From the NCBI GenBank assembly GCA_018830005.1, contig JAHJTE010000001.1:385332-449331 (forward strand): a stretch of DNA of 64,000 nucleotides, written 5' to 3'. The notes under the pieces are model-generated. The model was not told where the DNA came from. It searched no databases and saw only the letters and a program-made list of their open reading frames with translations. The position numbers and the translations under genes were made by a program. Source of the stretch: Candidatus Omnitrophota bacterium. GTDB taxonomy: Bacteria > Omnitrophota > Gorgyraeia > JAHJTE01. Position 1 is the stretch's first letter, and the number at the start of each line of letters is the position of its first letter. Of this stretch, positions 3,974-8,871 are shown piece by piece.

Positions 3974-4583
3974 GTTGGAGTTACTAGTAGCAACGCGCAA
4001 CAGGAAAAAGTTTAGAGAGATAAAGCAATTGCTTAAGCCTAGTCGCTTTAGACTTAGCTCTTTGGCAGATTTTGCGAATCTTCCCAAGGTTAAAGAGACG
4101 GGAAAAAGCTTTAAGGAGAATGCCGAGAAAAAAGCACGTCAGATTTCTCGTTTAACCTCTAGGCTGACATTGGGTGAAGATTCTGGTCTATGCGTTAATG
4201 CCCTGGGTGGGGCTCCCGGGATTTATTCCTCGCGCTTTGCAGGATTACATAAGTCTGACGAAGACAACAATAATAAATTATTAAGAAAACTAGACTGTTT
4301 GCCACTTTCGGAGAGAAAGGCGCACTATGTATGCGCTATTGCCTTAGCCTATAAAGGAAAGATATTGGCAAGCTTCGAAGGTAGGTGTCATGGCCTTATT
4401 GGGTTTAAGAAGAGGGGTTCATCTGGTTTTGGTTATGACCCTGTATTTATAATTCCTCATCGTAATAAGACATTTGCTCAGCTTGGCCTAAAGGTAAAAC
4501 ACACGATGAGTCATCGCAGAAAGGCAATCAGAAAATTAAAAGCATTTTTAAGGAAGGCCGAAGATATCCTTAAAAGGTTTTAA
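3963..4583 (+). CDS. rdgB: non-canonical purine NTP pyrophosphatase (RdgB/Ham1 family)
   Basis: 206 aa with 'ATRNRKK' and 'FGYDPVF' Ham1 motifs. The classic rph-rdgB pair. Confidence 0.85.
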   Translation: MLSKLELLVATRNRKKFREIKQLLKPSRFRLSSLADFANLPKVKETGKSFKENAEKKARQISRLTSRLTLGEDSGLCVNALGGAPGIYSSRFAGLHKSDEDNNNKLLRKLDCLPLSERKAHYVCAIALAYKGKILASFEGRCHGLIGFKKRGSSGFGYDPVFIIPHRNKTFAQLGLKVKHTMSHRRKAIRKLKAFLRKAEDILKRF

Positions 4584-7079
4584 GATATCTAGTTGGAGTT
4601 TTTTCGGCATAATCTTATATTCGGGTTGTTTTAAACTGCCACTTACTTTCACAACAAGATATTTGTTTATTTCGGCAAAAATATTCGTTATTAGTTTTCT
4701 TAGATCTGCCGAGTGTTCAATATATTCTTCGCTGAATTCACAATAGACGTCAAAATTAAGCATTCCATCAAAACCTAACCAGCCTTCTGCAGCTAGATTC
4801 ATTTGCGGACTTGCAAGAGTTAAATCTTGCGTAGAGATACGCTTATCAGCAATCCTGAATGTGGCCTCACCCTCATTAAAATTAATGCGGGAAAACTCCG
4901 GAAGTAGCAAAATCTCCCCTAGGCCTTTAAGTAATTTTAACTCCCAGATCTTGCCTTCTTTTATATTAAGTTCACCCTCACCGGATAAGGTTTCAATTAT
5001 TGGCCTTTTTGCATTTAGTATAGCTTTGGCTGAAAGTATGCCGCTGATATCTTTATCTTTAAAGGCCGTATCGCTTTTTAGTTTTGCAAGATCAACATTT
5101 TGGATATCAACGTCCAAATCTAACTGGAAGGTCTCAGGTAGAATTTCGCCTTTACCTTTAAGTTTAAAGTTCCCTCCATAGAGATTACCAAAAAATGAAA
5201 GCTTCTTTATTATGTTATTTGTTTGTTTATAGCTCAGTTGTAACTTATCTAGGTTAAGTCTAGCAACCTTTAGTGATTCGGATTCAGCATTTAAAGTTAA
5301 GGCCCAGTCCGTAAAGCTAAGAAGGGGGCCTTGAATTTGTGTCTCTAGATTAATATTTCCTTTTGGCCCAAGTTGTTTCAGCGTTTCCTCGAATTGTGGT
5401 AGCCAGTGTATGAGGTTGGAGGTCTCTAATTTTATTTTCGTATTTAAACTAATTCTCGATTCCTCTCCTTCGCTAAAATACACAACACCGTCTGCAATTA
5501 AGGTTGAGTCAAAAGAGCTTATACTTAAGTTTTCGATTTCTGCATTTTCTTTGTTTAAGGAGACTTGCGTGCGTAGATTTAGAAGCGGCGAAGACACATT
5601 AAATTTTAGTTTCGGCGCATTGAAGTCTTCAACAACCCCTGAGGTATTAAAATCCTGATTGTAAATAGAAAAGTTAATATCCTTCCAATTCAGGGCTGTT
5701 TCATTCAGGATAAGACTCCCATTTATATTTGAGATTTCGTTTTTTAAAGCCCTTAGTTTTAAATTCAGATCAAACAGCTCTGCATTAACAGTAAATTTTT
5801 TATTCTCAAGTTTAGCAGGTTGCCCCATTGTTGCTTCCAGATGAGCCCTCAGGTTTAGTTTTCCGGAAATTTCCTCTATTGTTTTTAAGGTTTCCTCGGG
5901 AAGAAAAATACTTAATTCTTCTGTATCTAATTTTTCAGAATAGACGTCCAATGTTAAAGGTGAGGCTCCAGCATTCTTCTGAAGCGGCATTAAAGGAATT
6001 TTTGCTGTTGCCTTTAGCTTATTTTCCTGCCAGAGACCTTCAAATTCTTCTAATGATGCATAATTATCTTTGATGCTAAATTTTGCCCTAATCTTCTTCA
6101 GGGAATTAAGGAATTTTAAGCCATTTATTTCTGTATCTCGGAACTCGACATCTCCGGATAAAGATGAAATATTTGGATTTTCAAACGCTGATTCTATTGA
6201 GGAGTTTAAAGATAGCTTTAGTTTTCCCCTAGAGGATATATCAAGGCTATCAACATCAAAATTTTCTATTTGTGCATCGCTTGAAATAGTGAGAGTTTTA
6301 CTGGAGAGGGAGTAATCTAGATTTGCTTTCATGTTTTCCAGGTTAAAACTTTTGATATTTGTGTTAGGCATATTGAAATATCGCCAGATATCTGCCAGCT
6401 CGATATCCTTTGTCTCAGTTTTGATTGTAATTGCTTGCTCTTTGAGATTTATTTCTCCTTCAGCAAAGATTCTGCCTTCGCTAGTTAAATTACTTCCAAC
6501 ATCTGAGCTTAATCTAAAGACGATATTCTCTAGATTGCCAGGATTTATATCGAGGTTGAAGTTTCTAAATTCTTTGTTTATACTAGGTGTAATAGCATTA
6601 TCTTGAACGAAGACCTTACCGGATATAACCTTAATTTTTGACAATACAAGCGGCAGTTTAGATTTACCCTCAGTCGTCCCTTTCTTTAGGAATTCCTGTA
6701 TGTTCCAAGTTTCTTTATCGCCTCTTTGGAGCTTGATAGATGGTCCGTTAATGTATAAGGTGGGGATAATTATGCGTTTTCCTTCTAGTGAGGGGAAAAG
6801 CATTATATTGAAGCGGACTTGCTCTACGGTAATAGGTCCATCTTTTGGTTCCTGGCCTTCTTCAAATAAAGAGATATCTTCTATAACAACCCCTTTTAAT
6901 ATTTCATAGGAGATACTCTTGATTCTTATTTTAAGATTAGTGTGTTTTATGACTGAATCTTCGATGAGAACTTTTAAGGTCTTAGGAACATAAGTATCTT
7001 TTAAGTAGAAGTAGCCTAGAATAAGGAGGGTAAATATAACTAGACTTACAAGGAGAGAGATAATTAGAACTTTTTTCAT
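4548..7079 (-). CDS. AsmA/TamB-like large membrane-anchored protein
   Basis: 843 aa with an N-terminal transmembrane segment and a long, repetitive beta-rich body, AsmA-like. The many + strand ORFs inside it are antisense artefacts. Confidence 0.5.
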   Translation of the reverse strand: MKKVLIISLLVSLVIFTLLILGYFYLKDTYVPKTLKVLIEDSVIKHTNLKIRIKSISYEILKGVVIEDISLFEEGQEPKDGPITVEQVRFNIMLFPSLEGKRIIIPTLYINGPSIKLQRGDKETWNIQEFLKKGTTEGKSKLPLVLSKIKVISGKVFVQDNAITPSINKEFRNFNLDINPGNLENIVFRLSSDVGSNLTSEGRIFAEGEINLKEQAITIKTETKDIELADIWRYFNMPNTNIKSFNLENMKANLDYSLSSKTLTISSDAQIENFDVDSLDISSRGKLKLSLNSSIESAFENPNISSLSGDVEFRDTEINGLKFLNSLKKIRAKFSIKDNYASLEEFEGLWQENKLKATAKIPLMPLQKNAGASPLTLDVYSEKLDTEELSIFLPEETLKTIEEISGKLNLRAHLEATMGQPAKLENKKFTVNAELFDLNLKLRALKNEISNINGSLILNETALNWKDINFSIYNQDFNTSGVVEDFNAPKLKFNVSSPLLNLRTQVSLNKENAEIENLSISSFDSTLIADGVVYFSEGEESRISLNTKIKLETSNLIHWLPQFEETLKQLGPKGNINLETQIQGPLLSFTDWALTLNAESESLKVARLNLDKLQLSYKQTNNIIKKLSFFGNLYGGNFKLKGKGEILPETFQLDLDVDIQNVDLAKLKSDTAFKDKDISGILSAKAILNAKRPIIETLSGEGELNIKEGKIWELKLLKGLGEILLLPEFSRINFNEGEATFRIADKRISTQDLTLASPQMNLAAEGWLGFDGMLNFDVYCEFSEEYIEHSADLRKLITNIFAEINKYLVVKVSGSLKQPEYKIMPKKLQLDILKPFKDIFGLP

Positions 7080-7202
7080 AAGTGCGTAGAAATAAAAGGA
7101 TTAAATGTAATTCCAACAAATTATAACTAATCAATCAGGCTAAAGCAAGCCTTTTCTAATAAGTTGAAAAGAAAAAAATTGCATGTTATAATAATGGCCT
7201 TA

Positions 7203-7277
7203 CGGGGCGTGGCTCAGTTTGGCTAGAGCGCCTGCTTTGGGAGCAGGAAGTCACAGGTTCAAGTCCTGTCGCCCCGA
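7203..7277 (+). tRNA. tRNA-Pro (anticodon UGG)
   Basis: Cloverleaf read by eye: acceptor CGGGGCG/CGCCCCG, D arm GCTC..GAGC, anticodon stem CCTGC/GCAGG with loop TTTGGGA, T arm ACAGG-TTCAAGT-CCTGT, discriminator A. C1-G72 is typical of tRNA-Pro. Confidence 0.85.
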
Positions 7278-7359: not shown

Positions 7360-7667
7360 GCGCCCGTAGCTCAATAGGATAGAGCATCTGCCTTTCAAGT
7401 GACCCCGAGCGTAAGCGCGGGATAAACATGGGAGCCTTCATAGGGAAATGAACCTGTGGAGTGGACGTCGCTAATTCGGTAGATACCCTATTTTTTTTGG
7501 GGTAATACCGAGCTATCCTTAAGTAATGGGGAAAGTGTAGAGACTTTACACGGCGAGGCTGAGATGCCTAAGATAAAGTCCGGCCAGCAAGCTCGAAAAG
7601 AGTGGTCAAGGAAACTTGATGCTGGATGCTAAGCAGAGGGTTGCCCGTTCGATTCGGGCCGGGCGCA
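7360..7667 (+). tRNA. tRNA-Arg (anticodon UCU) interrupted by a group I intron in the anticodon loop
   Basis: 5' exon GCGCCCG-TA-GCTCAATAGGATAGAGC-A-TCTGC-CTT (to 7394). 3' exon CTAA-GCAGA-GGGTT-GCCCG-TTCGATT-CGGGC-CGGGCGC-A (7629-7667), followed by an encoded CCA. The spliced product closely resembles E. coli argU tRNA-Arg(UCU). Confidence 0.7.
7395..7628 (+). ncRNA. group I intron (about 234 nt), inserted between anticodon positions 34 and 35
   Basis: Contains a GGGAAA (P3/P4-like) element, a P7 pairing AGACT...AAGTC, and 'GTGTAGAGACT', which matches the Azoarcus/Anabaena tRNA intron P7 region. The intron ends in G (omega-G) and the 5' exon ends in U. The exact splice coordinates are uncertain by a few nt. 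Confidence 0.6.
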
Positions 7668-7682
7668 CCATATTTTAGAAAA

Positions 7683-8786
7683 ATGAGAATAATAGTTAAG
7701 ATTCTGGTAATTTTTCTGATAATCTTCGTCCTGCTTCTTGTTTCTTCTTATTTAATCTTAAGTATTCGCGGCAGGGAGATAATCGAACAGCAGTTGTCAA
7801 AGACAATTGATGCCCCAGTAAGCTTAGAAAATATCTCTTTGGGTTTTCCTGATACAATTAAGATTGAAAATTTAGAAATAAAAGACTTCTTAAAAACTAG
7901 TTTAAAGCTTAAACTAAATCCTTTAGGCTTATTCAGCGGCAAAGTAATACTAAACAACATTACCATTGATAAGCCGCAATTAGTTTTAAGGAGAGAAAAT
8001 GATGGCTCCTTAAAGATCCCTTTTAAGCGACAAGCAGGTACTGCCAGCCCAAAACAATTACCCATTATTTTAGGCTTAGATATACGCGATGGACATGTTT
8101 TTTTTATTGATAGCTCGCAAGATGATTACCGTCTCAATATTTACGACTTAGATGTTAAAGTACATAAGAGATCAATAGATTTGAAGCCGATATTTAATTT
8201 TGATGTTTCTGCCCAACTTGGTGAGAAGGCAAAGAACGGTAAAAATTTTGCTTCGGAAGGCTGGATAGATTTTTTCAAGAAAGACATGCAGGGCAATTTG
8301 GAAATTAAAGATTTTTATACTGACGACATTTTGCCGATTTATAATCGCTTATTAGGTAAGAACATTTCAGGGGCTACATTAGATTTTCAGGCAAAAATGA
8401 ACGCAGAGGATAATGATCTTAAGATTGATTGTCATCTGCTATTATCTGGAATCAAGACTCAAGAAGAGTCTGGGGCAGAAGGTAAAAATCATAAAGATAT
8501 TTTAGTTTTTTCCGAGCTGCTTGATATATTCTCAAACCCCGAAGGTAAGATTGAATTAGATTTTGTTATCCATACTAAATTGGATAATCCTAGATTTGAT
8601 AAGGTTGATTTTGGGGCAAGTCTCCTTAAGGCCGCAGCAAAAAATATCTTATCCAAACCCCAGGAAGAGATCACCTCCAGCGTAGAAGAGATAGGTAAGG
8701 ATATAAAAGATTGGGGAAAAGAGAAAGGGAAAGAACTTCTTAAAACAGAGGGCCTTAAGGATATAATTGATATATTCGGCAAATAA
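7683..8786 (+). CDS. AsmA-family N-terminal-domain membrane protein
   Basis: Start moved from the track's 7626, which overlaps the tRNA 3' exon, to the ATG at 7683 (MRIIVKILVIFL, a transmembrane segment). The AsmA-like N-terminal region resembles the 4548-7079 protein. Confidence 0.5.
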   Translation: MRIIVKILVIFLIIFVLLLVSSYLILSIRGREIIEQQLSKTIDAPVSLENISLGFPDTIKIENLEIKDFLKTSLKLKLNPLGLFSGKVILNNITIDKPQLVLRRENDGSLKIPFKRQAGTASPKQLPIILGLDIRDGHVFFIDSSQDDYRLNIYDLDVKVHKRSIDLKPIFNFDVSAQLGEKAKNGKNFASEGWIDFFKKDMQGNLEIKDFYTDDILPIYNRLLGKNISGATLDFQAKMNAEDNDLKIDCHLLLSGIKTQEESGAEGKNHKDILVFSELLDIFSNPEGKIELDFVIHTKLDNPRFDKVDFGASLLKAAAKNILSKPQEEITSSVEEIGKDIKDWGKEKGKELLKTEGLKDIIDIFGK

Positions 8787-8793
8787 GATAAAT

Positions 8794-8871
8794 GGTGGGT
8801 GTAGCTCAGCTGGATAGAGCACTTGATTGTGGTTCAAGTGGTCGCGGGTTCAAATCCCGTCACCCACCCCA
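8794..8871 (+). tRNA. tRNA-His (anticodon GUG), with G-1 and an encoded CCA
   Basis: G-1 plus acceptor GTGGGTG/CACCCAC, anticodon loop TTGTGGT, T arm GCGGG-TTCAAAT-CCCGT, discriminator C73, then CCA. Confidence 0.9.

Follow-up and report, generated by a model that had tools for sequence, protein, structure and literature searches.

Positions 7360-7670 of the window (the whole 64,000-nucleotide stretch of DNA that was analysed, 37.9% G+C) most probably encode a tRNA-Arg(UCU) precursor in which a 234-nucleotide, endonuclease-free group I intron with an IC3-like core separates U34 from C35. We give this reading a probability of about 0.88. The preliminary description of this DNA had proposed exactly these coordinates and an insert of about 234 nucleotides. 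The gene is divided as follows.

7360-7394, forward strand: exon 1 of tRNA-Arg(UCU), 35 nucleotides, GCGCCCGUAGCUCAAUAGGAUAGAGCAUCUGCCUU, ending CUGCCUU. It carries the acceptor 5' strand, the D arm, the 5' strand of the anticodon stem, and loop bases C32, U33 and U34.
7395-7628, forward strand: group I intron, 234 nucleotides, starting UCAAG and ending AUG, with G7628 as omega-G.
7629-7670, forward strand: exon 2 of tRNA-Arg(UCU), 42 nucleotides, starting CUAAGCAGA and ending GGGCGCACCA. It carries C35, U36, A37 and A38, the 3' strand of the anticodon stem, the variable loop, the T arm, the acceptor 3' strand, A73 and an encoded CCA.

When the two exons are joined, ARAGORN calls the resulting 77-nucleotide RNA tRNA-Arg(tct), with a regular cloverleaf and the encoded CCA, which agrees with the earlier assembly of a tRNA-Arg(UCU) from two halves. 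Searched against E. coli genomes, the spliced RNA matches annotated tRNA-Arg genes best, at 75-79% identity. We enumerated all eight placements of the junction within the 7-nucleotide anticodon loop, and CUU/CUAA (k=3) is the only one that combines a U at the end of the 5' exon (U-1) with omega-G. The insertion between positions 34 and 35, an exon 1 that ends in U (U7394) and an intron that ends in G (G7628) had all been proposed before and are all seen here. The same junction is the sole valid one in 22 of the 23 family members described below. The only member with two valid junctions is a split tRNA-Arg from an Anaerolineae bin (L055), which could be cut after U33 or U34 because its intron ends in GG and both placements satisfy U-1 and omega-G.

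It is extremely improbable that the boundaries lie elsewhere, that the host is another tRNA such as tRNA-Ser(GCU) or tRNA-Lys(UUU), or that a protein endonuclease removes the insert. The ambiguity of L055 could be read this way, as could the result of ARAGORN in its intron mode, which found the correct outer ends of the gene but misplaced the intron and called tRNA-Ile(gat), a call superseded by the junction enumeration. However, CUU/CUAA alone has both terminal features in the window, the U.G wobble of P1 is invariant, and the spliced RNA matches annotated tRNA-Arg genes. In addition, inspection of the sequence by eye revealed no bulge-helix-bulge motif. In the unspliced 64 kb, the interrupted gene is called neither by ARAGORN nor by the Rfam tRNA model, and the only tRNA genes found by these tools are its neighbours, tRNA-Pro (7203-7277) and tRNA-His (8795-8871).

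The intron is likewise passed over by Rfam when the 64 kb are searched at the gathering threshold, where tRNA-Pro and tRNA-His are the only matches and Intron_gpI does not appear. A search with 421 nucleotides gives Intron_gpI (RF00028) a score of 18 bits (E=0.026), below the gathering cut-off of 50 bits, and the alignment places J3/4-P4 (AAUUCGG), J6/7-P7 (GUAGAGACU) and J8/7-P7' (AAGAUAAAGUC) in register. The preliminary description had named a missing Intron_gpI hit as an observation that would speak against it; the hit is indeed missing at the gathering threshold but present as this 18-bit match. According to Williams 2020, none of the Rfam group I seeds is bacterial (bioRxiv 10.1101/2020.01.27.920355). 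The low score reflects the weakness of the Rfam model for bacterial tRNA introns, not the absence of an intron.

A profile tailored to the family performs very differently from the Rfam model. Built from 22 relatives without the window sequence, it matches 7388-7634 end to end (nhmmer, 113 bits, E=9.6e-35), and this is its sole match within the 64 kb. The window is still recovered at E=3.3e-24 when the nearest relative (L085) is also withheld. The intron folds at -88.2 kcal/mol (z=-3.96 against shuffles), and the window sequence on its own yields the helices of the model. Together, the leave-one-out match and the fold z-score place the intron beyond chance. The family profile also matches classical seeds, with scores of 43.5 bits for Leu.3Ug, 33.9 bits for Arg.5Ug and 25.4 bits for Azoarcus Ile2.5Ug. 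The earlier assignment to group I is upheld by U-1, omega-G, the family profile and the covariation described next, and the core is IC3-like.

The secondary structure model, P1 to P9, was drawn on an alignment of 23 split tRNA-Arg(UCU) sequences that includes the window. Its elements in the window are the following.

7392-7396 / 7430-7434, forward strand: P1, in which C32, U33 and U34 and the intron bases U+1 and C+2 pair with the guide GGGAG.
7404-7421, forward strand: extra hairpin in L1, CCCGAGC GUAA GCGCGGG, found in the MFE fold and an insertion in the alignment.
7430-7434, forward strand: internal guide sequence GGGAG, the 3' strand of P1; GGAGCC is invariant in the family and lies directly before P2.
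7436-7444 / 7453-7461, forward strand: P2, CUUCAUAGG / CCUGUGGAG, 9 base pairs, loop GAAAUGAA.
7466-7470 / 7551-7555, forward strand: P3, CGUCG / CGGCG, compensatory changes in 5 of 5 pairs and 100% of cells paired.
7476-7481 / 7506-7511, forward strand: P4, UCGGUA / UACCGA, 99.3% paired and nearly invariant.
7485-7488 / 7500-7503, forward strand: P5, ACCC / GGGU, 4 base pairs with an 11-nucleotide U-rich loop, inside P4.
7512-7514 / 7534-7536, forward strand: P6, GCU / AGU, with a short P6a stub at 7515-7533 (19 nucleotides).
7542-7547 / 7575-7580, forward strand: P7, GACUUU / AAAGUC, preceded by J6/7 GUAGA; the expected guanosine-binding helix.
7556-7559 / 7566-7569, forward strand: P8, AGGC UGAGAU GCCU, compensatory changes in 3 of 4 pairs and 100% of cells paired.
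7570-7580, forward strand: J8/7 AAGAU and the P7 3' strand AAAGUC; AAGAUA.AGUCC is invariant in the alignment.
7584-7588 / 7621-7625, forward strand: P9, CCAGC / GCUGG, 99% paired with 3 compensatory pairs.
Within P9 (7584-7628), forward strand: P9a, CUC GAAAA GAG, recovered by RNAalifold.
7605-7610 / 7615-7620, forward strand: P9b, GUCAAG GAAA CUUGAU, compensatory changes in 6 of 6 pairs.
After P9, forward strand: AUG ending in omega-G at 7628; omega-G is invariant in the alignment.

Strong evidence for this model comes from covariation. Through P9b, standard pairs fill 92.9% of cells, compared with 33-43% after a shift of the 3' strands by one to three columns. Changes on both sides occur in 32 of the 53 pairs, and none of 500 shuffles matches the observed values. 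Nearly all pairs of P2, P3, P8 and P9b are compensatory, and P4 and P7 are almost invariant. RNAalifold, run free of the model, recovers P2, P3, P4, P5, P6, P6a, P8, P9, P9a and P9b. The conserved core comprises P3-P4-P5-P6 together with P7-P8, includes the P3/P7 pseudoknot, and is supported by covariation. The window copy has lost none of the core helices and keeps all bases that are invariant in the family.

At the 5' splice site, the splice follows U7394, which forms a wobble with G7432, and the exon pairs of P1 are C-G, U-A and U.G in all 23 sequences. The extra L1 hairpin is specific to the window among its closest relatives and is missing from the nearest one, and the 33-nucleotide L1 insertion could slow the formation of P1. 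The nucleotides UGG at 7429-7431 can pair with CUA of the 3' exon to give a putative P10. We discarded a second candidate for the guide, GGAG at 7458-7461, because these bases close the 3' strand of P2, which covaries, and all relatives have GGAGCC immediately ahead of P2. That stem shows compensatory changes in eight of its nine pairs and is paired in 99% of cells, and RNAalifold agrees. The GGGAAA element (7442-7447) that had been assigned to P3/P4 is actually the end of the P2 5' strand and the start of L2. The sequence motif GUGUAGAGACU of the preliminary description was located at 7535-7545, and the P7 pairing it had proposed is the one between GACUUU and AAAGUC listed above.

Four P7 pairs are invariant, and pair 396/426 of the alignment is U-A in the window and its nearest relative and A-U in the other 21 sequences. 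The outer pair of P3 is a C-A mismatch in the window, a feature common to the same relative, and P5 is poorly aligned, with 54% of cells paired. With respect to subgroup IC3, GUAGAGACU at J6/7-P7 and a GAAA loop on P9b (22 of 23 sequences) are present, and L2 has no tetraloop.

Group I introns splice by a well-established pathway. We infer that the window RNA is catalytically competent and would take the same chemical steps in the same order. The intron would fold into P1-P9, and the guide GGGAG (7430-7434) would pair with C32-U33-U34 and with U+1 and C+2 of the intron, presenting U7394.G7432. Free (exogenous) guanosine held in P7 would then attack after U7394 (U34), and the 3' exon would dock through P10, UGG with CUA. 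Finally, omega-G7628 would take the guanosine site and the exons would be ligated, giving the loop CUUCUAA. The anticodon stem UCUGC/GCAGA would keep the two exons together, and work by Zaug et al. from 1993 reportedly found that this stem matters for the Anabaena tRNA-Leu intron, which occupies the same position.

We regard it as highly improbable that the ribozyme is inefficient alone and that in the cell it needs help from a host protein, for instance a chaperone or a maturase-like factor. Self-splicing is established for the classical small tRNA introns of the IC3 class, the GAAA tetraloop on P9b is conserved, and the genes next to the tRNA include no candidate for a cofactor. The case for a protein draws on L2, which in the window is not a GNRA tetraloop, in contrast to the GAAA-capped P2 of the Azoarcus seed, so that one stabilising contact may be missing. 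It also draws on the reliance of many group I introns on proteins in vivo (review PMC3984707).

Relatives were collected by scanning species-representative genomes for GTAGAGACT, a gap of 10-40 nucleotides and AAGATAWAGTC, which gave at least 120 loci. Among the 120 loci listed, 22 are tRNA-Arg(UCU) genes with the break after nucleotide 34, and about a third received no tRNA class. The family profile adds 11 loci that splice to tRNA-Arg(tct) and were not picked up at the ARAGORN step. Thus, at least 33 split tRNA-Arg(UCU) genes exist in public genomes among the 120 loci listed. Their hosts include Arenicellales and other Gammaproteobacteria, Acidobacteriota, Chitinophagales, Nitrospiraceae, Omnitrophota and Chloroflexota (Anaerolineae and Ca. 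Promineifilaceae). Bacillaceae are also represented, cultured ones included: Neobacillus, Fredinandcohnia, Bacillus gaemokensis, a B. cereus strain and Alkalicoccobacillus.

The nearest relative among the matches listed (L085) comes from a Candidatus Omnitrophota bin. Its intron is 78% identical, and its locus has the layout of the window, with a split tRNA-Arg, about 1.2 kb and then tRNA-His. These two introns are the most divergent: the family profile scores the window at 113 bits and the relative at 124 bits, and the rest at 155-206 bits. The window intron is a divergent member of a well-defined family found at this one site across many bacterial phyla.

The core pattern used in the scan also picks out group I introns in other tRNA genes, namely Asp-GUC, Asn-GUU, Tyr-GUA, Thr, Met/fMet, Leu-UAA and Arg-CCU. 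Among the matches listed, these loci are mostly from Patescibacteria and Saccharibacteria bins, and the types agree with the Williams seed alignment (bioRxiv 10.1101/2020.01.27.920355).

The suggestion in the preliminary description that tRNA-Arg(UCU) might be a new host for this intron class does not hold. In Williams 2020, 5,292 group I-split tRNA genes were mapped and the number of types rose from 4 to 21, and the seed alignment contains Rba190.Arg.3Ug, a tRNA-Arg with an intron after loop bases CUU (bioRxiv 10.1101/2020.01.27.920355). Since the seed shows U34 alone, we infer an anticodon of UCU, not UCG, for this exemplar. Neither host nor position is new, because the Arg.3Ug type is the type found here, and the public genomes hold the split genes counted above. 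A 2014 review of bacterial group I introns (PMC3984707) does not list a tRNA-Arg(UCU) host. Our search of the literature on group I introns in tRNA-Arg(UCU) matched organelle papers and found no experimental or splicing work.

By site, the window intron has every feature that defines the Arg.3Ug type: a tRNA-Arg host, insertion after loop base 3, U-1 and omega-G. In the seed alignment, Rba190.Arg.3Ug likewise has a tRNA-Arg host, the CUU/ site, U-1, omega-G and a P1 that pairs CUU+N with GGAG. A shared intron lineage is not part of the type definition, and the exemplar scores 33.5 bits against the family profile, no better than the Leu, Ser, Thr and Met types, compared with 113 bits for the window. 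This suggests that at least two intron lineages may use the tRNA-Arg U34/C35 site. The two introns also differ at J3/4-P4, which is UAAUUCGGUA in the window, UAUAUCGGUG in most relatives and AAAUUCGGGG in Rba190.Arg.3Ug, and at J8/7, which is AAGAUA in the window and AAGGGA in the exemplar. In addition, the window family has a 9-base-pair P2 stem with a loop of 8-10 nucleotides, whereas P2 of the exemplar is a GAAA-capped stem.

Nine of the split tRNA-Arg(UCU) loci among the matches listed have longer introns, of about 600-646 nucleotides, with an insertion in P6a. In most of these insertions there is an ORF of about 140-165 codons, and these ORFs have conserved motifs in common. Two ORFs were scanned, and both match the PD-(D/E)XK family PF11645, with E=6.5e-40 at L001 (3303-3961) and E=2.4e-32 at L084; ORFs of the same family are found in the long introns of L001, L037, L042, L069, L070, L072 and L084. 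Against the PDB, the L001 ORF has a single, weak match (E=0.56), to 2OST, the structure of I-Ssp6803I. At L098 (3123-3775) the intron instead carries a LAGLIDADG ORF (PF14528, E=6.7e-6), and at L064 (5299-5908) the ORF runs antisense, contains the HNH-like motif CANCHRIRH and has no Pfam match. The homing-endonuclease genes in P6a of the longer members indicate that the family has spread by homing. The window intron has no endonuclease ORF, since 234 nucleotides leave no room for such a gene; even when no start codon is required, the longest run without a stop is 57 codons.

These observations are compatible with a broader scenario that we hold only tentatively, at somewhat less than even odds. 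Introns of the window type would form a lineage apart from the Arg.3Ug exemplar that colonised U34/C35 independently and was spread across phyla by retargeted endonucleases. These enzymes, I-Ssp6803I-like PD-(D/E)XK proteins and occasionally LAGLIDADG proteins, would have been redirected to the tRNA-Arg anticodon region. The window intron would be an endonuclease-less survivor in an Omnitrophota-like organism that has no other tRNA-Arg(UCU) gene, and if so it gates the decoding of the most used Arg codon of its host.

In the ORFs of the window, AGA is the commonest Arg codon (38.6% of Arg codons, 20 per 1000 codons), and thus splicing probably matters. ARAGORN finds no second tRNA-Arg within the 64 kb, and it is plausible that splicing is essential for AGA decoding. 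Since the tRNA-Arg search covered 64 kb of the genome, AGA might be read by another tRNA-Arg(UCU) gene elsewhere, with 7360-7670 being a tRNA pseudogene that carries a decayed, non-splicing intron. The low scores of the window and its nearest relative against the family profile, the C-A mismatch at the outer P3 pair and the weak P5 are in keeping with such decay. However, the core helices and family-invariant bases are all intact, as are both exons with their encoded CCA, and AGA is the most used Arg codon. Moreover, the nearest relative, a different species, has the same C-A mismatch, which is therefore conserved and not a sign of fresh decay. We consider a decayed intron very unlikely and retain the reading of a functional precursor. 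Four further features surround the gene.

4548-7079, reverse strand: an 843-amino-acid ORF directly upstream of the tRNA cluster, with no Pfam match at E<=0.001.
7164-7192, forward strand: promoter-like site, TTGAAA, a 17-nucleotide spacer and TATAAT, with TG (11 of 12 consensus positions, pattern match only).
7626-8786, forward strand: public gene call of 386 amino acids (10367-11527 in L121), AsmA/DUF748/YhdP-like, between tRNA-Arg and tRNA-His, with a start that falls inside the tRNA 3' exon.
8740-8767, forward strand: promoter-like site (10 of 12 match) just upstream of tRNA-His.

The site at 7164-7192 lies upstream of tRNA-Pro and may drive a Pro-Arg transcript. Since no terminator-like site was found after tRNA-Arg, one transcript may cover the tRNAs and the AsmA-like gene. 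The true start of that ORF is likely the ATG at 7686, which would give a protein of 366 amino acids. An exact match to this shorter protein was looked for and not found, whereas RNase PH placed the window on a 552-kb metagenome contig, k141_343398 of ENA ERZ27247117. The nearest relative has equal spacing between tRNA-Arg and tRNA-His, with weak protein similarity across this interval.

The split gene is overlooked by tRNAscan-type tools, by ARAGORN in its default mode and by Rfam at the gathering threshold, and such genomes therefore seem to be without tRNA-Arg(UCU). This apparent absence distorts estimates of tRNA completeness for metagenome bins. Gene callers also stretch the neighbouring ORF into a tRNA exon, as at 7626-8786. 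The window contributes a divergent, endonuclease-less member, whose host seems to be an Omnitrophota-like organism, to a widespread family of introns catalogued by bioinformatics only. Its main value lies in annotation and as a candidate for the first splicing test of the tRNA-Arg(UCU) intron type, in a tRNA for the most used Arg codon here.

Among better-known systems, the tRNA-fMet intron of Synechocystis, with its PD-(D/E)XK endonuclease I-Ssp6803I (PDB 2OST), resembles the long relatives of the window intron, which likewise carry PF11645. Unlike that system, the PF11645 ORFs of the relatives sit in tRNA-Arg(UCU) introns, and the window intron is ORF-less. The introns of Azoarcus tRNA-Ile(CAU) (Ile2.5Ug) and alpha-proteobacterial tRNA-Arg(CCU) (Arg.5Ug) resemble the window intron in three respects: the core is IC3, P9 carries a GAAA tetraloop, and the exon part of P1 is short (3 base pairs). 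However, they are inserted after position 36, whereas the window intron is inserted after position 34, and they have a GAAA tetraloop in L2 where the window has an 8-nucleotide loop. The extra L1 hairpin belongs to the window. The tRNA-Leu(UAA) intron of cyanobacteria and plastids (Leu.3Ug, Anabaena type) differs in its host tRNA and in the peripheries of P2, P5 and P9. Its self-splicing is proven experimentally, whereas the window intron is known from its sequence. Like the window intron, it lies between U34 and base 35, has a small IC3-type core with GUAGAGACU, is usually ORF-less, and resides in a tRNA for common codons.
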